Below are positions 1 to 41,651 of a stretch of 57,899 nt of DNA, piece by piece. The position numbers and the translations under genes are program-made. The stretch lies in assembly GCA_964645935.1 (NCBI GenBank), contig CAZYAK010000003.1, positions 1 to 57,899 of the forward strand, given 5' to 3'. The DNA comes from an uncultured Candidatus Peribacteria bacterium. GTDB taxonomy: Bacteria; Patescibacteriota; Gracilibacteria; Peribacterales; Peribacteraceae. Every line of letters begins with the position of its first letter. Within the stretch, counting starts at the first letter, position 1. The notes below the pieces were generated by a model. It did not search any database. It was not told the DNA's origin and saw nothing but the letters and a program-made list of their open reading frames with translations.

Positions 1-30
1 GCCTTGGTATCCGCATGGCCGGCTCCACCA

Positions 31-392
31 AGGGTTTCCCGTTTCTTTGTCGCCACAAAGAAACGGGGGAAAGAAAACGCCGACCGCGACAAGCCACCGG
101 CCTCCAGCGGATAGGGGTCCCTCTAGCGGGTGCAATGCTCAAGGAACAGGATCCCTGCGGCCGTAACCGCCTACCCGCCGTGTCCGGTCGAGGGGTAAGG
201 CGAAGACCCTGCTCGGAAGGGGTCAGTGGCTCCAGAAGAATGCCGTATCGATTGCACCCGCGCGCTACCCCTACAACCCAGCCGCAGGTCTTCGACCTGC
301 GGGTGACGATCAAAGCGGCCGCGACCAAACACACACATATCCCCAGTCGCACTGGTCCCGCGGTGCGGACTGGCGATCATGGCGTCCGCCCG
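31..392. repeat. ORF-less structured repeat element, copy A (hairpin 38-67; blocks shared with 27905-28145; inverted TTGATCG-hairpin module at 260-313)
   Basis: Block-wise nucleotide similarity to 27905-28145 and 36594-36703. Perfect 13-bp stem CCCGTTTCTTTGT/ACAAAGAAACGGG. No ORF with coding-like composition. Confidence 0.6.
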
Positions 393-3329: not shown

Positions 3330-4904
3330 TCATGGTTGGACGACGTAGCGGACCGTCTTCACCGACGGGAATTGCTTGAGGTTGGCGGAGATCGCGCGCT
3401 GCGCGGAGGTGGAGCTCTCGGTGTCACCCTGGAAGATCTCGGCCAGCGGGCGGGCCAGCCGCACCGTGGCCGTGCCGCCCTGGATGACGACGCCGCGGTA
3501 ATCGTCTCCCGAGAAGCCCCACACGCCGTTGCAGGGCTGGGCCTTCTCGTCGGCGGAGATGGAGGCGTGGAGCATCGCGCGGAGCGTCATGTCCGCCACG
3601 GAGGAGGACTGGGGCACGGTGCGCGTGAGCTTCACGGTGGGCGCCGGGACGTCATGCACGCCCGAGCCGTAGGGGCAGAGCAGGATGCTCACCTCCATGG
3701 TGGGAGCCTCCTGCGCGGCGGGCGCGGGCGCGATGTCCACGGTGTCCAGGAACGCGCGGAAGAGCTGGTCCTGCCCGTCGGAGGAGAGGTATCCGTCCTG
3801 TTGTTGATTGCAGTCCACCGACCGTACGATCACGAGCGTGCGCGTCGCGTCCATGGGGACGAAGGTCGTCTCCCAGCCCTCGCACTCGAGGCCCTCGAAG
3901 TACGAGACGCCTTGGCGCCCGTCCACGGTGACATTCTGGGCGAAGTCCTCGTCGAAGGAGTTGAAGCCGAGCCGCGCGTACACGAGCGGCCGGTCCAGGA
4001 CGCCCACGGAGATCGCCAGCTTGCTCACGGAGGGGCGGCACGGGGCGTCTGGGCCCGCCATACCGTTGCAGCCCTCTGCGGTCTCGTGGCGGCGCACGTG
4101 CGCGACATCCAGGGAGTGCATGCGCTGCAGGTCGCCGGGTACGTAGATGTCACGCACCGTCAGCACGCCTTCCTTGGCGCTGAAGAGCGATCCGGGGTAG
4201 CTGAAGGAGACGTCACGCAGCACGGACGACACCTCGTCGCTGCGCACGTCGTCACCGTCCTCGATGCCGGAGAACCATTCCAGCGACGTGCGGCCGGTAT
4301 CCAAGCGATAGCGCAGCTCCGCCATCTCGCCGCGCGTGAACGGGGCGTCGTAGGCCTCCACGGTGGGCGGCACGGCGTGGCGCGCCAGGAGGGCGGAGGC
4401 GTAGGGCGCGTACCAGCGGTGGTCGTACGCGTCCGCGGGGAGGATGGGCAGCTTGTAGGCGGTGGCGGCGATCTTGGCGGCCTCGGCGTAGTTGATCCAC
4501 GCGTGCGGCGCGAAGCCGCCGTCGGGGTATCCCGAGACGATGCCACGCTCCTTGGCCACGCACACGTACGGCGCGAACCACTCGGTCCTGGGGACGTCGG
4601 GGAAGATGATCTGGGATTTAGCCACGCAGGCCGAGCGCTCCTCGGGGGTGGAAGCGTCCACCACCAGGAGCTTGGTCAGCTCCGCGCGGGTGATGAGGCC
4701 GTCCGGACGGAACGTGCCGTCGGGGTAGCCCTCCACGCTCCCCTTCCCGCGCAGGAACTCGATGGCGGGCGCGGCGGACACGCATCCGCGGACGTCGGAG
4801 AAACCCGTGGCCGCGGCGTTGCAGCCGGTGGTGGCCAGCGCGACGGGAACGGCCAAGAGGGACGTCGACGCGACGGCGGCGGACAGTAGGAGGGAGAGGC
4901 GCAT
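3330..4904 (-). CDS. secreted SLH-domain protein with C-terminal GerMN-like domain
   Basis: Signal peptide MRLSLLLSAAVASTSLLAVPVALA. Two SLH-type repeats (GYPDGTFRPDGLITRAEL, SGYPDGGFAPHAWINYAEAAK). The C-terminal ...GGTATVRLARPL...ANLKQFPSVKTVRYVV looks GerMN-like. Confidence 0.7.
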   Translation of the reverse strand: MRLSLLLSAAVASTSLLAVPVALATTGCNAAATGFSDVRGCVSAAPAIEFLRGKGSVEGYPDGTFRPDGLITRAELTKLLVVDASTPEERSACVAKSQIIFPDVPRTEWFAPYVCVAKERGIVSGYPDGGFAPHAWINYAEAAKIAATAYKLPILPADAYDHRWYAPYASALLARHAVPPTVEAYDAPFTRGEMAELRYRLDTGRTSLEWFSGIEDGDDVRSDEVSSVLRDVSFSYPGSLFSAKEGVLTVRDIYVPGDLQRMHSLDVAHVRRHETAEGCNGMAGPDAPCRPSVSKLAISVGVLDRPLVYARLGFNSFDEDFAQNVTVDGRQGVSYFEGLECEGWETTFVPMDATRTLVIVRSVDCNQQQDGYLSSDGQDQLFRAFLDTVDIAPAPAAQEAPTMEVSILLCPYGSGVHDVPAPTVKLTRTVPQSSSVADMTLRAMLHASISADEKAQPCNGVWGFSGDDYRGVVIQGGTATVRLARPLAEIFQGDTESSTSAQRAISANLKQFPSVKTVRYVVQP

Positions 4905-17079: not shown

Positions 17080-17457
17080 TCAGCCGAGGAGCTCCTTCAG
17101 GCGCGTGATCGCGTTGCGCAGGATCCGGTCCATCTGCCCCACCGTCTCGCCGCGGCCGCGGGTTTCGGCCGTCTCGCGGAGCGTCCGGCCTTGGCGGCGC
17201 GCTTCCAGCAGCTCGCGCTGGTCCGGGTCCAGCTGCGCGATGGCTTCCTCCAGGCGTTGGCGCTCCTCGGCGTCCAGCGCGTCCTCCGGCGGGACGAAGC
17301 GCCCCGAGAGCGCCTGGGCGACGGCCGCGCCGCCGCGCCGGAGCAACGCGTCGAAGGCCGCCTGCTTCTCGGCGCCGGCGCCCGTGCCACGCAGCACCGT
17401 GACGGCATCGGTCACGGGCGGCCCGGCGGAGGGAGGGGTCTCGGCGGTCACGGTCAC
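17080..17457 (-). CDS. truncated sigma-like protein (region 2.1-like start plus region 4 only, 125 aa)
   Basis: LDPDQRELLEARRQGRTLRETAETRGRGETVGQMDRILRNAITRLKELL resembles sigma-70 region 4. Regions 2.2-2.4 are absent. The GTG start overlaps the upstream sigma stop (GTGA). Confidence 0.6.
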   Translation of the reverse strand: MTVTAETPPSAGPPVTDAVTVLRGTGAGAEKQAAFDALLRRGGAAVAQALSGRFVPPEDALDAEERQRLEEAIAQLDPDQRELLEARRQGRTLRETAETRGRGETVGQMDRILRNAITRLKELLG

Positions 17458-18083
17458 GGCAGGAACGCGTCGAGGTCGATCTCCCGTTCCCGGCTGAGCT
17501 TGCTGATGACGGACTTCAAGCGGCGGCGCGCGTCGTGCAGGCGCCGCTTCACCGTGCCGAGGGGCACGTTCACCGCGGGGTCCGTCTCGTTTGCCGGCGT
17601 GCCGAGTGCACGCTGCATCTGCTTCAGGCTCATCCCGCTGAAGTAGAACAGGTCGATGACCTGGGCATCGATGGGCCGCAGGAGCGCGATGACGCGATCC
17701 AGGACATTCTGCACCTCATCCTGCACCAGCTCCGCCTCCGGGGAGGCTTCCGGCGAGGGCACGGTGTCGAGGTCGCAGGCCTCCGTGCGCATGCACAGGG
17801 ACTTGCTGCCCGCCTTCGTCAGCTCGTTGAGCGCCATGTTCCGGGCGATCCTGCAGATCCAGCTACGAAATGCGCCTTCTTCCCGCAGCTGGCCAAACTT
17901 GCGCAGCGCCTGCATCGCCACCAGCGACGCCAGGTCCTCGGCGTCATGCCGGTCGCGCAGCAGGGCGAGGAGGAGGTTGAACACCTGTCTCCGGGAGCCC
18001 TCGTAGAGCTCCAGGAACCGCGCGGCGTCTGGCGCCGCGGGGGTCTCGAGCCGCGGCTCGTCGAGGCAGTCGGGAGTGTGCAT
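17454..18083 (-). CDS. ECF-type sigma-70 family factor, paralogue 1
   Basis: Region 2 (FLELYEG...DAEDLASLVAMQALRKF...FRSWICRIARNMALN) and region 4 (...GTVKRRLHDARRRL). Start at MHTPDC, preceded by CCCTCCCCATCCGCCC. Confidence 0.85.
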   Translation of the reverse strand: MHTPDCLDEPRLETPAAPDAARFLELYEGSRRQVFNLLLALLRDRHDAEDLASLVAMQALRKFGQLREEGAFRSWICRIARNMALNELTKAGSKSLCMRTEACDLDTVPSPEASPEAELVQDEVQNVLDRVIALLRPIDAQVIDLFYFSGMSLKQMQRALGTPANETDPAVNVPLGTVKRRLHDARRRLKSVISKLSREREIDLDAFLP

Positions 18084-18154
18084 GGGCGGATGGGGAGGGT
18101 CTCGGGGAACGTGTCCCCTTCTTGCTGCTGCGAACGGGATCACGGCCGGCAGGG

Positions 18155-18778
18155 TCACGACAGGAGCGCGTCCACATCGATCTCGTTCCGCTTGCCCATC
18201 TCAACGAGGACGGCCTTCAGGCGGCGATGGGCGCTGTGCAACCGTCTCTTCACCGTGCCCATCGGCACCTCGATTGCAGGGCCGGACTCGGTCGCCGGCG
18301 TGCCGAGCTCGCGCGCCATCTCCTTGTAACTCAGGCCGCGGCGATAGCGCAGATCGATGATCTCGCCATCGAGAGGCCGCAGGAGCACGATGACGCGCTG
18401 CAGGATCTCCCCGAGCTCCGCGAGCTCCAGCTGCTTATCCGGGCCATATCCCGGTGAGCACACATCATTCAGGGTGCGGTCCTCGCGGCTCCGGCGGAGG
18501 GCGTTGCGCCGCGTCAGCGCGTTGATGGCCATGTTCTTGGCGATCTTGCAGATCCAGGCGCTGAACGCCCCTTCGTCCCGCAGCTGGCCGAACTTGCGCA
18601 GTGCCTGCATCACCACGACCGACACCAGCTCCTCGGCATCGTGCCGATCGCGCAGAAGCGAGAGGAGGACGGCGAACACCTGGGCCCTGCAGCCCTCATA
18701 GAGCTCCATGAACCGCGCCGCGTCGGGTGCGACGGCTTCCCCGGTTTCCAGAGAGGCTGGGCAATCGGAATGCTCCAT
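18155..18778 (-). CDS. ECF-type sigma-70 family factor, paralogue 2
   Basis: Collinear with paralogue 1 (FMELYEG..., FSAWICKIAKNMAIN, GTVKRRLHSAHRRL). Start at MEHSDC. The longer ORF to 19153 would overlap gatB. Confidence 0.85.
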   Translation of the reverse strand: MEHSDCPASLETGEAVAPDAARFMELYEGCRAQVFAVLLSLLRDRHDAEELVSVVVMQALRKFGQLRDEGAFSAWICKIAKNMAINALTRRNALRRSREDRTLNDVCSPGYGPDKQLELAELGEILQRVIVLLRPLDGEIIDLRYRRGLSYKEMARELGTPATESGPAIEVPMGTVKRRLHSAHRRLKAVLVEMGKRNEIDVDALLS

Positions 18779-18935
18779 GGGCGGATGGTAAGGATCTCGA
18801 ACGACTTGTCCACTTCTTGCTCCGCATCGGACGATTTGGGGCTGGAAACAGGGAAACGATGCCCTTGCCGGTGGCCGTCCGCCATCCGCCGACCGCCCAT
18901 TGCGACGGAGACGCCGCGTCGTTACGCTGGTCCCC

Positions 18936-27362: not shown

Positions 27363-27434
27363 TCCGCCGTCTGGCGCAGGCGTGGGGCATCTCCGGGAGG
27401 TGCCCCATTCGTCATGCTCGCCCCTCGTACGGGT

Positions 27435-27576
27435 GCCGGATTGATCGCCACCCGCGGGGCGGGACCCCCGCGGCTGGGTTAATAGGCGGGTCGGGCCTGG
27501 AAGAGATCATGCTTCTTCAGCCGTACAGCGTCATCAACCGAGTCGAACTTTTCCCGTCTCTACGCTGACACTTTTT
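27435..27576 (+). repeat. TTGATCGCCACCC-hairpin repeat module, copy D
   Basis: The first 45 nt are identical to 36751-36795 (GCCGGATTGATCGCCACCCGCGGGGCGGGACCCCCGCGGCTGGGT). The 3' part is homologous to 36817-36873. Confidence 0.75.
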
Positions 27577-27730: not shown

Positions 27731-27816
27731 CCTCACTCCCACTCAATCGTGCCCGGCGGCTTGTTGGTAAGGTCCAGAAAGACGAGATCGACGCCATCGA
27801 GCGCCAAGACACGCTC
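27731..27816 (-). pseudogene. orphan duplicate of the guaA 3' end (last 27 codons, stop and 2 nt); left copy of an 86-bp direct repeat
   Basis: 86/86 identity with 28392-28477. Encodes ERVLALDGVDLVFLDLTNKPPGTIEWE* but has no upstream guaA sequence. Confidence 0.9.
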
Positions 27817-28391
27817 TGTTATCAAGCCGAGGACGTCGCGTCGTGGGCTTGGGACGCGATCCCCTGGGACAAAGAACTGGAGAACGAAAGCCTCGATCTG
27901 CGAAGAGCTTCCCATTTCTTTGTACGCGACAAAGAAATGGGAGAAAGAAAACGCCGACCTGCCAAGCCGCCGGCCTCCAGCGGATAGGGCTCCGCCGCTC
28001 ACTCGTTGAATCACACGTACCCTCACGCTCCGGCCGCAACCACTGACCTACTGTGGCAGGTCGAGGGGTACGGCTCAGGCCCTGCTCGGAAGGGATCAGT
28101 GGTTTCAGACGAGTGTTGCCAAGGAACCACACAAACAATCACACCCATCTCTGGAGCCCGGCCCCCTCCATGAAGATCGCGCATGCTGTCTGAGGAGGGC
28201 CTGCGGGCCCGACGAGTTCTTGCGCGGGCGCCTTTCTTTCCGCCGTTTCTTTGGCGCGTACAAAGAAACGGCGAACCCTGGCGGAGAAGACTCCCGCTCG
28301 AGAACATGTAGCCCCAGGATCGCACACAAAAAGTACCACCCTCGGTGGTGCGGATGGCACGAGGAGAACAGACGGTTCCATTGATCGCCAC
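27817..28391. mobile_element. 575-bp ORF-less hairpin-rich insert between the guaA-tail repeats (integrated-element remnant or non-autonomous element candidate)
   Basis: Flanked by the 86-bp direct repeats. Inverted copies of the GTTTCTTTG..CAAAGAAAC hairpin at 27911-27941 and 28242-28272. Blocks homologous to 31-270. Ends in TTGATCGCCACC. Confidence 0.45.
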
Positions 28392-28393
28392 CC

Positions 28394-30196
28394 TCACTCC
28401 CACTCAATCGTGCCCGGCGGCTTGTTGGTAAGGTCCAGAAAGACGAGATCGACGCCATCGAGCGCCAAGACACGCTCCGTCATGCTCTGGAGCACGGAAG
28501 GCGGGAGGACGAAGGCGTGGGCCGTCATCGCGTCGGTAGAGACGATAGGGCGCAGCACCACAGACTGGCCACCGGCGCGTGTGCCGAATGGCAGCAGCAC
28601 TACGGGGAACTGCCAGATCTCCCCATCCAAAGCGGCGCGCACCATCTCTTCGTGCACAGCGGCGTCGGCCTCGCGCAGGAGGTCAGCACGCTGACGCGTG
28701 ATGGCCCCGGGGGTGAAGGTGAAGGCGACAGGCGGAGCGGTACGTGAGGTGCAGAGCAGCACGCGATTGAGCGTGGGGTGGGAATTCGGGACCGACGTGG
28801 CTAGATGCAGGTGCTCTTCGGTGACGACGGTTGGCCGGTCCGAGAAGAGCGCCACCGCGTGGCGGTACGTGCGGCCGTCACCCTGCACGCCCACGGACTT
28901 CACGGGGAGGATGGCGTGCGTGCCTAGGCGTGCGGTGTCGCTGCGCCCGGGAAGGTCGGGGCCATTGGCGCAGAGAATGCGCACCCCAAGTCCCGGTCCC
29001 GGGAACGGATGGCGCCACACGAGAGCTTTCGGCAGACCCAGCTCCTCGCCAAGCAGGCGCACTTCGTCTTTGTAGAGCTCCTTGAGCGGCTCGATCACGA
29101 GGCCGGCGTCGATCATCTTCTGCACCGCATCTACACGATTGTGGTGCGTCTTAATATGGTCTGCATGCTTGGTACCGCCAGTCTCGATGGTGTCGGGGTA
29201 GATGGTCCCCTGGCCCAGCATCCAGCCATCCTCCACGCGAAGGTTCAGCCGCTCACTCACGCGCTTCTGCACAGCCAGGAACGTGTCGCCGATGATCTTC
29301 CGCTTAGCCTCGGGCTCGGTCACGCCCTCCAGGTTCTTGAAGAATTCGGCCGAAGCGTCCTCCACTTTGAGGTTGGTGATGCCAAGCTTCTCAAAGGCCT
29401 CCGTAATGAGCGCAACTTCGTTTTTCCGCATCAGGCCCGTGTCGACGAGCAGGCCCTGCACGCGGTCCGCGCCAAGCACCTTGTTGAGGAGCGTGAACGC
29501 GACGGAGGAATCCACGCCGCCGGAGACGAGCATGAAGACCTTGCGATCGCCGACCTCTTTGTTGAGCGCCGCACCCACATGGTCCTCGAAGCTGGTCATG
29601 GACCAGGGCGCAGGCTCGCAGAGCATCACGAAGTTCTTGAGGAGATCCATCCCGTGCTCCGTGTGTGTCACCTCCAGGTGGAACTGCGCGCCGTAGAGAC
29701 GACGCTTCTCGTCCGCCATCGCGGCGTAGTCGCCCACCGCGGTCTTGGCGGACTGCGAGAAGCCCTGGGGCAGGACGCTCACCTCGTCGCCGTGGGACAT
29801 CCACACCGTGAAGGTTTTGGGCAGACCCTTGAAGAGCGCGCCGTGGCTGGTGACGGTAAGGGGCGTCTTGCCGTACTCCTTCACCTTCCCCGGGGTGACC
29901 TTGCCGCCGAGGACCTGGGCCAGCCACTGATGGCCGTAGCAGAGGCCGAGCACGGGGATGCCGAGCTCCAGGATCGTGGGGTCCGCCTGGGGGCTCCCCT
30001 TCTCATACACGCTCTGCGGTCCTCCGGAGAGGATGATCCCCGCGGCGCCTGTGAGCTCCTCAGCCGGCGTCTCCGCCACGCGGATCTCCGAATACGCCCC
30101 CAGACGCCGGACGCGGTTGGCGATGAGGTGGGCGTACTGCCCGCCGAAATCCAGGATGACAATGGAGCCGGGGTGGATGGGAGGCGGGCCCTTCAT
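28394..30196 (-). CDS. guaA: GMP synthase (glutamine-hydrolysing)
   Basis: GATase (ILDFGGQYAHLIANRVR, LGLCYGHQ), the ATP-PPase P-loop SGGVDSS and the canonical C-terminus KPPGTIEWE. Start at MKGPPPIHPG. Confidence 0.95.
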   Translation of the reverse strand: MKGPPPIHPGSIVILDFGGQYAHLIANRVRRLGAYSEIRVAETPAEELTGAAGIILSGGPQSVYEKGSPQADPTILELGIPVLGLCYGHQWLAQVLGGKVTPGKVKEYGKTPLTVTSHGALFKGLPKTFTVWMSHGDEVSVLPQGFSQSAKTAVGDYAAMADEKRRLYGAQFHLEVTHTEHGMDLLKNFVMLCEPAPWSMTSFEDHVGAALNKEVGDRKVFMLVSGGVDSSVAFTLLNKVLGADRVQGLLVDTGLMRKNEVALITEAFEKLGITNLKVEDASAEFFKNLEGVTEPEAKRKIIGDTFLAVQKRVSERLNLRVEDGWMLGQGTIYPDTIETGGTKHADHIKTHHNRVDAVQKMIDAGLVIEPLKELYKDEVRLLGEELGLPKALVWRHPFPGPGLGVRILCANGPDLPGRSDTARLGTHAILPVKSVGVQGDGRTYRHAVALFSDRPTVVTEEHLHLATSVPNSHPTLNRVLLCTSRTAPPVAFTFTPGAITRQRADLLREADAAVHEEMVRAALDGEIWQFPVVLLPFGTRAGGQSVVLRPIVSTDAMTAHAFVLPPSVLQSMTERVLALDGVDLVFLDLTNKPPGTIEWE

Positions 30197-36552: not shown

Positions 36553-36593
36553 GAGGGAATCGTAGCATGGGACGAGGCTTGGCAGCCGCAACC

Positions 36594-36873
36594 AGACACA
36601 CACAAACGCCCAGCCACACTGGTCCCACGGTGCGAACTGGCAAGGGAAACGGCTGCGCTGATCGCCGCCCGCAGGTCGAAGACCTGCGGCTGGGGTATAG
36701 GGAGGGCTGACCCGGGAGGGAACGATCGGAATGTGTGTTGTCCGGTCGATGCCGGATTGATCGCCACCCGCGGGGCGGGACCCCCGCGGCTGGGTATAGG
36801 GGGTAGCGCGCTTTTCCAGCCGTGCAGCGAGAAAACCGAATCGAACTATCCCCGTCTCTCCGCTGACACGTTT
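36594..36873 (+). repeat. mosaic of repeat modules, copy C (ACACACA/CACTGGTCCC module, then two TGATCGCC-hairpin modules)
   Basis: 36594-36642 is homologous to 325-377. 36658-36703 is homologous to the reverse complement of 260-313. 36751-36873 is homologous to 27435-27576. Confidence 0.75.
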
Positions 36874-37812: not shown

Positions 37813-38487
37813 ATGAAGACCCATTTTGCCTTGTCCGCCGCCGTCGCTACGGTGTGCACCCTCGCGGTGAGCGCCACGGCGTTCGCGCAGCAGCAACCGT
37901 TCCGCAGGGATCCGTTCACGGACGTACCCTCCAGCAGCGCGCAGTCCGAGGCCATCGAGTACCTCCGCAAGGGCAACGTGCTCAAAGGCTACCCCGACGG
38001 CACCTTCCGCCCCGGGAAACAGATCACGCGCTCGGAGTTCATCTCGCTCCTTACCAACCCGTTCTTCCTGAGCGGCCGCGAGAACGACTGCCTCAAGGTG
38101 CACTTCTCCACCACGAGCAGCTCGGCCCGCGTGTTCTTCACCGATGTGCCCAAGGATTCGTGGTACGGCCAGGACGTGTGCGAGGGCATCGTGCACGGGA
38201 TCATCAACGGCTACCCCGACGGCACCTTCAAGCCCCAGCACTGGGTGAACTTCGTCGAGGCCGCCAAGATCACGGCCAACGTGCTGGCCATCGACGTCAC
38301 CACGGACCCTGCCGACGAGCGCTGGTTCGTCCCCTACGTGAAGTACGTGGCCAAGGTGAAGGCCATCCCCACGTCCATCAAGCGCTTCGACCAGGAGATC
38401 ACCCGCGGCGAGATGGCAGAGATGGTCTACCGCCTCAAGGTGGGCAACTCCACCAAGGCGAGCGCCTCCTTCGAGAGTCTCCGCTGA
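37813..38487 (+). CDS. secreted SLH-domain protein (3 SLH repeats)
   Basis: Signal peptide, then FTDVP...GYPDGTFRPGKQITRSEF, FTDVPKDSWYG...GYPDGTFKPQHWVNFVEAAK, and ...ITRGEMAEMVYRL. Confidence 0.85.
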   Translation: MKTHFALSAAVATVCTLAVSATAFAQQQPFRRDPFTDVPSSSAQSEAIEYLRKGNVLKGYPDGTFRPGKQITRSEFISLLTNPFFLSGRENDCLKVHFSTTSSSARVFFTDVPKDSWYGQDVCEGIVHGIINGYPDGTFKPQHWVNFVEAAKITANVLAIDVTTDPADERWFVPYVKYVAKVKAIPTSIKRFDQEITRGEMAEMVYRLKVGNSTKASASFESLR

Positions 38488-40126: not shown

Positions 40127-40161
40127 ACGCGAAAGCCGCCACGGGAGGAGCCGTGGCGGCG
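40127..40161 (-). terminator. 35-nt hairpin module, copy 1 (terminator of the 40175 gene)
   Basis: Minus strand: GCCGCCACGG-CUCCUC-CCGUGGCGGC-UUUCGCGU. Identical 35-mer at 40705-40739. Confidence 0.6.
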
Positions 40162-40483: not shown

Positions 40484-40670
40484 CGGACACCTCCCACGGC
40501 ACCCGCGCTCGCCCTCCTGCGGCGAGCTGTTACCGCCTCGGGTCAACGGACGCCCGGCCGCGACGTGCGGCAAGGCCCCTCGGTGAGCGAGGGTGGATGG
40601 GAGGTCGGTTCCAAGGAGCGGACACCCAGTATCGCTGCAGCGGCACGGCGGACAACCGATCTGGCCGCGC
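40484..40670 (-). promoter_or_regulatory. structured 5' leader, copy 1 (riboswitch/attenuator candidate)
   Basis: Shares a 30-nt identical box (40489-40518 = 41411-41440) and a 20-nt box (40585-40604 ~ 41510-41529) with the leader of the 41407 gene. The boxes are mutually complementary and sequester GGGAGG. Confidence 0.55.
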
Positions 40671-40704: not shown

Positions 40705-40739
40705 ACGCGAAAGCCGCCACGGGAGGAGCCGTGGCGGCG
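40705..40739 (-). terminator. 35-nt hairpin module, copy 2 (terminator of the 40766 gene)
   Basis: Identical to 40127-40161. Confidence 0.6.
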
Positions 40740-41407: not shown

Positions 41408-41651
41408 GGTACCTCCCACGGCACCCGCGCTCGCCCTCCTCGGCGAACAGGTATGCCGCGAAGTGAAGCGTGGACCCAACCGCGGAGCGCGGCCAGACCC
41501 CCTCGCGATGAGCGAGGGTGGGTGGGAGGAAATGCCAAAGAGCGGCCGATCAGTGTGCCAGGGCCACCCGCGGACGCAAGTGCAGGGGTGTGGCAACCAG
41601 CGTGTGCGCCAGTTATGTTGTGGCTCATCCCCCCCACGCGGGACAACCGGC
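41408..41651 (-). promoter_or_regulatory. structured 5' leader, copy 2 (riboswitch/attenuator candidate)
   Basis: See copy 1. It fills the whole korB-to-ORF spacer. Confidence 0.55.

Follow-up and report, generated by a model that had tools for sequence, protein, structure and literature searches.

A hairpin-headed intergenic repeat in a Candidatus Peribacteria contig, probably a member of a widespread family of nonautonomous fold-back elements

A contig of an uncultured Candidatus Peribacteria bacterium (GenBank CAZYAK010000003.1, assembly GCA_964645935.1), analyzed here over its full length of 57,899 nucleotides (nt) and referred to as the window, carries two copies (A and B) and a truncated, inverted third copy (C) of a noncoding intergenic module. 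The module stands apart from ordinary intergenic sequence and is probably, though far from certainly, the lineage-specific member of a very widespread group of nonautonomous fold-back intergenic repeats that resemble repetitive extragenic palindromes (REP/REPIN), NTS repeats, or miniature inverted-repeat transposable elements (MITEs). Each unit consists of an almost invariant AT-rich head and a variable, strongly self-complementary body. A preliminary description of the window had proposed a structured RNA or a protein-recognized mobile repeat of the MITE type. The mobile-repeat half of that proposal fits best, and a role as RNA is less likely. Pairing is under selection. A classical MITE is not supported either, as copy A lacks a second inverted end and the duplication flanking copies B and C is 92 bp long.

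Three copies of a noncoding module in the window

Copy A (positions 23 to 262, forward strand) comprises a leader (23 to 37), a hairpin (38 to 67) and a box (69 to 77), which together form the head, and a body (78 to 262) with conserved blocks at 91 to 116 and 186 to 231. Only 22 nt separate it from the contig end, and its upstream side lies beyond the contig. Copy B (27903 to 28150, forward strand) has the same head (hairpin, 27911 to 27941; box, 27943 to 27951), a body (27952 to 28117), and an ACA-rich tail (28124 to 28150). Copy C (28219 to 28286, reverse strand) is restricted to the leader, hairpin (28241 to 28273), and box (28233 to 28240) and is the third, inverted hairpin and box noticed previously. 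The shared features listed in the preliminary description are all present: the 13-bp hairpins CCCGTTTCTTTGT-cgcc-ACAAAGAAACGGG (38 to 67) and CCCATTTCTTTGT-acgcg-ACAAAGAAATGGG (27911 to 27941), whose stem difference (G-C to A-T) is compensated in the pairwise alignment as had been claimed, GAAAGAAAACGCCGACC at 69 to 85 and 27943 to 27959, AAGCCRCCGGCCTCCAGCGGATAGGG at 91 to 116 and 27964 to 27989, and GGTCGAGGGGTA...CCCTGCTCGGAAGGGNTCAGTGG at 186 to 231 and 28059 to 28103. The distance between blocks 3 and 4 is 95 nt in A and B alike. The ACACA-rich tail also exists, but in copy A (322 to 345) it is cut off from the module by a small repeat (262 to 321).

The resemblance between A and B far exceeds chance. 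Comparison of the window with itself by BLASTN aligned 30 to 242 with 27903 to 28115 (77% identity over 216 nt; E = 1.5e-35) and positions 23 to 93 of A with 28286 to 28219 of C (82% identity; E = 6e-9), and the latter match indicates that similarity begins upstream of the hairpin. An nhmmer profile of A and B gave E values of 1.6e-74 for copy B and 2.4e-9 for copy C. Shuffled controls predicted 0.02 matches to the hairpin pattern (two to three were found across pattern searches) and 0.00 matches to the box and its flank (two were found). Within the A/B alignment, identical blocks alternate with spacers of near-random identity.

The module had been described as free of open reading frames (ORFs), and this description holds. 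Two indels between A and B, in the hairpin loop and in the spacer between blocks 2 and 3, shift the frame across a stretch of 100% nucleotide identity, copy B contains stop codons in all six frames, and a profile of the sole long frame shared by A and B had no match among 5.8 billion proteins. These results rule out the remnant of a protein-coding gene as the origin of the blocks, since A and B have no shared open frame.

Distribution of the head across bacterial phyla

Copies exist well beyond A and B: in addition to C and one locus in a relative (L044), there is a wider family sharing the head. The head is defined by a core hairpin (TTTCTTTG/CAAAGAAA) with a loop of 5 to 8 nt, a stem extension of 3 to 5 bp, and an AAAGAAA box 5 to 6 nt downstream; all three window copies have a 6-nt spacer between core and box. 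The core hairpin was found in these three copies and in 103 distinct heads from other sources. Outside the window, the profile of A and B had one match, at L044 between gatB and def, where the head reads CCCCTTTCTTTGT-cgcg-ACAAAGAAAGGGG-c-AAAGAAAACGC. Restriction to what A, B, C, and L044 have in common gave a 24-base search pattern (TTTCTTTGT N4-6 CAAAGAAA N5-6 AAAGAAA), exact matches to which occur in at least 120 metagenome contigs and 4 viral contigs, with a host GC content ranging from 28 to 70% among the matches listed. The distribution extends from bacteria of the candidate phyla radiation (CPR) to Betaproteobacteria and Bacteroidota. One contig is of Bacteroidota type, its upstream gene encoding a GH9 enzyme with a type IX secretion system (T9SS) sorting tail, and one large cluster of head-bearing metagenome contigs is Ralstonia. 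When a family member from one of these contigs (L054) served as a BLASTN query, 134 Ralstonia megaplasmids were matched, at up to 13 places per record; E. coli genomes gave no match to a family member.

Bodies are wholly different between lineages, and only a short CCCTG...GCTC motif is loosely common to them. Two loci (L117 and L168) have a head exactly as in copy B (CCCATTTCTTTGT...TGGGAGAAAGAAAACGCC) but nothing in common with blocks 3 and 4. Most family contigs have a GC-rich hairpin just upstream of the head and a long hairpin downstream, and the unit size is about 130 to 270 nt. Judging from the collections scanned, the A/B body appears so far to be unique to this genome: the block 3 18-mer had 38 matches in genome contigs, all attributable to chance (no other block was present in any), and none in viral contigs, and a two-anchor pattern of blocks 3 and 4 had no match in metagenomes. 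Many bodies elsewhere (e.g., L054 at ∼470 to 500, L077, and L100) are capped by a mirror-symmetric internal loop consisting of AAACTCG, a small variable hairpin, and CTCAAACAG; this apex motif is not recognizable in the window copies.

No Rfam family was matched. Searches of Rfam 15 at the gathering threshold found nothing for the window or 13 family loci, and permissive thresholds (the window and 23 family loci overall) gave only chance matches to microRNA-like hairpins. No name for the family was found in Rfam 15, in Pfam (via spurious ORFs), or in the searchable literature, where it could stand under another repeat name, and the head motif is absent from a catalogue of tagged REP families (PMC3733652).

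Pairing and covariation

Nucleic acid pairing in the family is under selection. Covariation, of which the preliminary description had seen one instance in the A and B stems, is present in the stem extension, in the pairing of the loop with bases after the box, and in 19 pairs of the Ralstonia body. Stem extensions are CCCG/CGGG in A, CCCA/TGGG in B, CGCCG/CGGCG in C, and CCCC/GGGG in L044, and one variable stem position takes three compensated forms within Peribacteria: G-C (copy A), A-T (copy B), and C-G (L044). Across the 103 distinct heads, 86% of stem extension pairs are Watson-Crick, versus 49 ± 2% with shuffled partners, and the mean run of complementarity between loop and post-box bases is 3.68, versus 2.82 ± 0.07 in shuffles (z, ∼12). 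Because the loop pairs with bases following the box, the head has a pseudoknot-type topology.

Copy C is the only window copy with this loop/post-box pairing (5 bp, GCGCC/GGCGC, counting the C after the loop). The loops of A (TCGCCA) and B (TACGCGA) approximate the reverse complement of the loop required by the post-box sequence ACGCC, and it looks as though the A/B palindrome has flipped its loop and thereby lost the pseudoknot pairing. Where A has TCGCCA, L117 has TGGCGA.

The Ralstonia cluster provides a view of a complete unit. Conservation starts and stops sharply over about 250 nt between unrelated flanks, and the body is an interrupted hairpin of ∼45 bp in which 19 pairs have double compensatory changes. 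The paired cells of the unit comprise 1,248 Watson-Crick, 21 A-C, 12 G-U, and 9 other combinations. Wobble pairs are thus rare (1 to 2%) and have no strand bias, a pattern that marks a DNA palindrome, or a structure in use on either strand, and not a typical RNA. In positions 1 to 4 of the head stem extension, A-C (39) exceeds G-U (7) on the motif strand, mostly owing to about two lineages.

Consensus folds of A and B have similar energies on either strand, two sequences being uninformative in this respect, and z scores from single-sequence folding of the A/B body are approximately −2. A long-range helix occurs at the same alignment column in both copies (GCGGGTGCAAT/ATTGCACCCGC in A, 11 bp and perfect; CACTCGT/ACGAGTG in B, 7 bp plus an extension), with unrelated sequences.

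Genomic context of family members

In the sampled contigs, heads lie 15 to 250 nt, and mostly 58 to 101 nt, past the stop codon of a gene on the same strand. The upstream genes are unrelated, encoding a DcuA/B transporter, RadA, GlgB, UvrC, M20 peptidases, MdoG, GH9, a molybdopterin oxidoreductase (MoCoBD), and a fumarylacetoacetate (FAA) hydrolase (FAH), and a convergent gene often ends 200 to 350 nt beyond the head. No tnpA, tnpB, or iscB gene emerged as a neighbor among ∼130 heads, and the sampled neighbors are housekeeping genes. A neighboring partner gene (TnpB, RAYT, integrase, or small nuclease) was considered and rejected, as the ORF clusters near ∼130 heads are spurious frames over the element itself; these ORFs have no Pfam family and few database relatives.

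Inverted doublets with outward-facing heads were found in the window (B and C), in L095, L116, and L082, and in the spacer between glgB and glgX of Ralstonia, and tandem arrays were found in L132, L075, and L087. Long flanking repeats were seen only in the window and the tandem arrays. The glgB-glgX spacer (L169 to L171) carries the doublet in strains MAFF301560 and UW386, where it measures ∼610 bp or more, whereas in strain SL2330 it is 144 bp long, without heads and bodies but with the outermost leader-type hairpin retained. The spacer therefore differs between strains by ∼470 bp or more, and such differences indicate that the family is gained or lost between close strains.

Some of these loci have further peculiarities. 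The array in L132 (8555 to 9200), a low-GC genome, consists of full and degenerate heads in tandem, each following the same 37-nt AT-rich leader (TTTTAATGTTAAAAAACCAGTAAAAAATCTTACGTTC), and the UW386 spacer contains extra tandem leader units (TTGGTGGTGCAT-CCC..GTTTCAT-CCCCTGCCGGGG). The ends of the L095 doublet (2070 to 2605), TGTTTCAC...GTGAAACA, are the two halves of a canonical parS palindrome, possibly by coincidence, and Ralstonia leaders have TGTTTCAT at the position that matches these parS-like ends.

The guaA locus and its 569-bp insert

The window (65.7% GC) has the gene content of an ordinary chromosome, including genes for DHFR, ThyA, GlnA, Amt, EF-P, GatB, sigma factors, and PFOR, and the named close homologues of its GuaA all belong to Peribacteria. 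Copies B and C lie downstream of guaA (GMP synthase, 600 amino acids; 28394 to 30196, reverse strand), whose 3′ end is duplicated around a 569-bp insert (27823 to 28391). Repeat analysis identified the functional guaA 3′ end as direct repeat 2 (28392 to 28483, reverse strand) and the displaced last 29 codons and stop of guaA as direct repeat 1 (27731 to 27822, reverse strand; 98% identical to repeat 2, with a match to GMP_synt_C), each being 92 bp long. Within the insert, B and C are arranged tail to tail with their hairpins outward, forming an inverted-repeat pair of 39 nt (87% identity), and the inverted heads are set in from the two repeats by 89 and 120 bp. Copy B faces the displaced guaA fragment, and the copy C hairpin (to 28273) is 121 nt past the guaA stop codon (28394 to 28396). 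Between that stop and the copy C head there is a canonical intrinsic terminator (28325 to 28349, reverse strand; ACCACCGAGGGTGGT followed by ACTTTTTGTG). The insert thus supplies the terminator now used by guaA, at the place where a GC hairpin precedes heads elsewhere in the family.

Neither the insert nor the module is present at guaA in four related Peribacteria genomes, where the sigma-70 and DUF5667 genes come 126 to 270 bp after guaA or are separated from it by a single small unrelated gene. The insert contains no credible ORF, it had no BLASTN match in plasmid and phage collections, and no tRNA or tmRNA gene is present in the window. An assembly artifact was rejected as the origin of the 92-bp repeat, because two positions distinguish its copies and repeat 1 does not belong to any intact guaA. 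The 82 nt beside repeat 1 were also considered as diverged guaA sequence, and this was rejected because 173 of 500 shuffles scored equally well.

Comparison with known repeat systems

REP and REPIN elements are short hairpin repeats with an oriented tag that occur in tens to hundreds of copies, in 3′ untranslated regions (UTRs) and between convergent genes. They form inverted doublets that fold into long hairpins, as well as mosaic arrays (bacterial interspersed mosaic elements [BIMEs]), are mobilized by a RAYT (TnpA-REP) protein encoded once elsewhere in the genome, and have secondary roles in termination and mRNA stability. The head family resembles them in forming inverted doublets and in clustering at gene 3′ ends. 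However, REP stems are GC rich and lineage specific with a GTAG/CGTC tag, whereas the head is AT rich and near-invariant across phyla with an AAAGAAA tag, family units of ∼130 to 270 nt exceed the 20 to 40 nt of REPs, and the 58-kb contig contains no RAYT gene. NTS (SRM) hairpin repeats, which are 28 nt long (CGTCATTCCCGCGMAVGCGGGAATCYRG) and occur in hundreds of copies across distant bacteria, are recognized as single-stranded DNA by Ssn (GIY-YIG) nucleases that are usually encoded elsewhere (PMC11893778). The head family shares with NTS the combination of a hairpin repeat and a conserved oriented flank, but the NTS sequence differs and no long body is attached to it.

Like MITEs and other fold-back elements (Correia and ERIC), the family is noncoding, 100 to 600 bp long, self-complementary, intergenic, strain polymorphic, and presumably cotranscribed with neighboring genes, and the B/C inverted pair adds to this likeness. 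Single units (A and most other members) differ in having one head only, and no short target site duplication is evident in the family. Furthermore, we know of no cognate insertion sequence for the head family, and the MITE families known to us are restricted to a genus or family, whereas the head family spans phyla. With triple-helix pseudoknots (ENE/MALAT1, telomerase RNA, SAM-II, and Cas12e/TnpB scaffolds) the head shares two pyrimidine tracts and one purine tract (UUUCUUU, UUUCUUU, and AAAGAAA), the central C/G, and a covarying helix. This resemblance is one of sequence logic only, the strand order differs from that of ENE, and no TnpB or Cas gene is near any copy. Finally, cis-mobilizable elements (CIMEs) at guaA 3′ ends are comparable to the insert in the direct repeat of the guaA 3′ end and in a small noncoding insert with a new gene end and terminator, but the window has no integrase, and the repeat family occurs at many other types of site without such repeats.

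Origin and function of the module

In this genome, the B/C doublet arrived downstream of guaA within the 569-bp insert, whose borders are formed by the duplicated 92 bp from the guaA 3′ end. Under the fold-back repeat interpretation, the head would be the recognition site of a trans-acting nuclease or transposase that acts on the DNA hairpin and is encoded elsewhere in each genome; such a recognizer is inferred by analogy with GTAG-REP/RAYT and CGTC-NTS/Ssn (PMC11893778; PMC3733652). The inserted hairpins and T/A tracts may also serve neighboring genes as terminators or 3′-end protectors.

Several observations weigh against this interpretation. The partner is purely inferred: no recurrent protein family was found within 2.5 to 3.5 kb of ∼130 heads, and the 58-kb window encodes no integrase, transposase, reverse transcriptase, RAYT, TnpB, or small nuclease, nor, by a simple motif scan, any GIY-YIG-like small ORF. 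Short target site duplications are absent from the ends of the L095 and Ralstonia doublets, and there is no consistent insertion signature. The 92-bp guaA duplication is, to our knowledge, unlike any transposition footprint, and the “empty” Ralstonia allele may have arisen by deletion instead of representing a site that was never occupied. With only 2.5 copies of the body of this lineage, its own structure is barely testable, and A and B, unlike most family members, reach only 3 bp of loop/post-box pairing, which is the background level. A 24-nt core shared across phyla is also unusual for transposon ends and could instead reflect a host RNA function.

That the element acts as RNA, either in a 3′ UTR or as a stand-alone structure, is a rather unlikely alternative. 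The head would then be an H-type pseudoknot, and the cassette would spread through its usefulness. A strand with two UUUCUUU tracts and one AAAGAAA tract could form a major-groove triple helix of U-A-U and C+-G-C layers that terminates transcription of the neighboring gene, shields its message from 3′ exonucleases, or both. The covarying loop/post-box pairing, with its pseudoknot topology, agrees with this. Copies A and B lack that pairing, however, and in either pseudoknot reading a 13-bp stem crossed by an 8-nt strand would be under geometric strain. The third AAAGAAA/UUUCUUU strand is an exact mirror of the stem core down to its central G/C, and on the opposite strand the head has the order UUUCUUU-N-UUUCUUUG-loop-CAAAGAAA, in which a triplex is possible together with loop pairing. 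On that strand the A-C excess of the stem extension becomes G-U, but the excess comes from essentially two lineages, and the scarcity and lack of bias of wobble pairs in the Ralstonia body are unlike those of typical structured RNAs. On the opposite strand, A and B also have a small hairpin ahead of UUUUCUUUC that receives a terminator-like score, the spacing between stop codons and heads is short and fixed, and the long-range helices of A and B coincide in the alignment despite their different sequences. Against these points, no promoter-like site is near A or B, and no Rfam family was matched even at a permissive threshold. A related idea, slightly less likely still, is that the head is an undescribed cross-phylum motif in its own right: either a seven-layer U-A-U/C+-G-C triple-helix pseudoknot capping transcripts or the site that a partner enzyme recognizes in a third superfamily of tagged hairpin repeats, beside GTAG/RAYT and CGTC/Ssn.

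The guaA duplication raises a different alternative, in which copy B belongs to a degraded, att-flanked element of the CIME type that has no integrase and that targeted the guaA 3′ end, the hairpin-box pairs are arm sites for a recombinase or accessory protein flanking the core, and copy A is the equivalent in a second element. A 92-bp repeat of a gene 3′ end is the classic footprint of integrase insertion that restores its target, the inverted heads are situated between the repeats, the insert is absent from relatives, and it brings its own guaA terminator. We nevertheless consider this very unlikely, as heads occur at hundreds of unrelated loci without a long flanking repeat, Ralstonia doublets have no duplicated gene end, both copy A and its counterpart in L044 lie away from guaA, and neither an integrase in the window nor a match in phage or plasmid collections was found. 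Most improbable of all is that a dimeric DNA-binding regulator uses the palindrome as its operator and that the remainder is intergenic sequence kept by recent duplication. A perfect 13-bp inverted repeat with invariant half-sites and a 4- to 6-bp spacer has the form of an operator. Yet the outer stem positions are compensated within one genome, which a single regulator would not need, heads follow genes rather than precede them, and they are accompanied by a covarying hairpin of about 100 to 200 nt. The alternation of conserved blocks with near-random spacers also speaks against recent neutral duplication.

Other repeats and duplications in the window

Self-comparison revealed a second small repeat family at 262 to 338 (reverse strand) and at 27434 to 27575, 36650 to 36702, and 36731 to 36873 (forward strand). 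Its units consist of ATTGATCGCCACC, a variable GC hairpin, and GGCTGGGT-ATAGGGG(GTAGCGCGC). The family contains GTAG and, from its sequence, may be a conventional REP-type element. One of its copies separates copy A from the ACACA tail, and the bare 13-mer ATTGATCGCCACC at 28380 to 28392 abuts the guaA stop, right where direct repeat 2 has its border. The ACACA-rich tail after copy A, together with a small hairpin (322 to 378, forward strand), is repeated at 36582 to 36641 and represents a third repeat unit, in which an ACACACA-rich stretch precedes a hairpin (CCAGTCGCAC...TGCGGACTGG; 315 to 374 versus 36582 to 36641, 83% identity). This unit adjoins the second family at each of its two sites, so that intergenic regions of this small CPR genome have a mosaic, BIME-like makeup.

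Short repeats, intergenic or genic, also occur near the trmD and PFOR genes (40127 to 40161 and 40705 to 40739, 100% identity; 40489 to 40604 and 41411 to 41529, 78% identity). Two further similarities are ordinary gene duplications: tandem, diverged sigma-70 family genes (17435 to 18126 and 18136 to 18821; 71% identity over 700 nt) and SLH domain paralogues on opposite strands (4400 to 4766 and 37951 to 38338, inverted).

Significance

Small dispersed hairpin repeats shape bacterial genomes as recombination hot spots and terminators and through mRNA stability, and for each of the well-understood classes a dedicated enzyme came to light that was later turned into a tool (RAYT in the case of REPs and the Ssn single-strand nucleases in that of NTS). 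Stretches such as those described here also matter for annotation, as they create spurious ORFs and break assemblies; copy A is situated at a contig end. The 24-base core of the head is nearly unchanged in genomes of 28 to 70% GC, one of them a reduced CPR genome, even as the bodies diverge freely, which implies recognition by something highly conserved. To name this partner of the head, or to establish that the head is a triple-helix RNA cap in bacteria, would be a genuine step forward.

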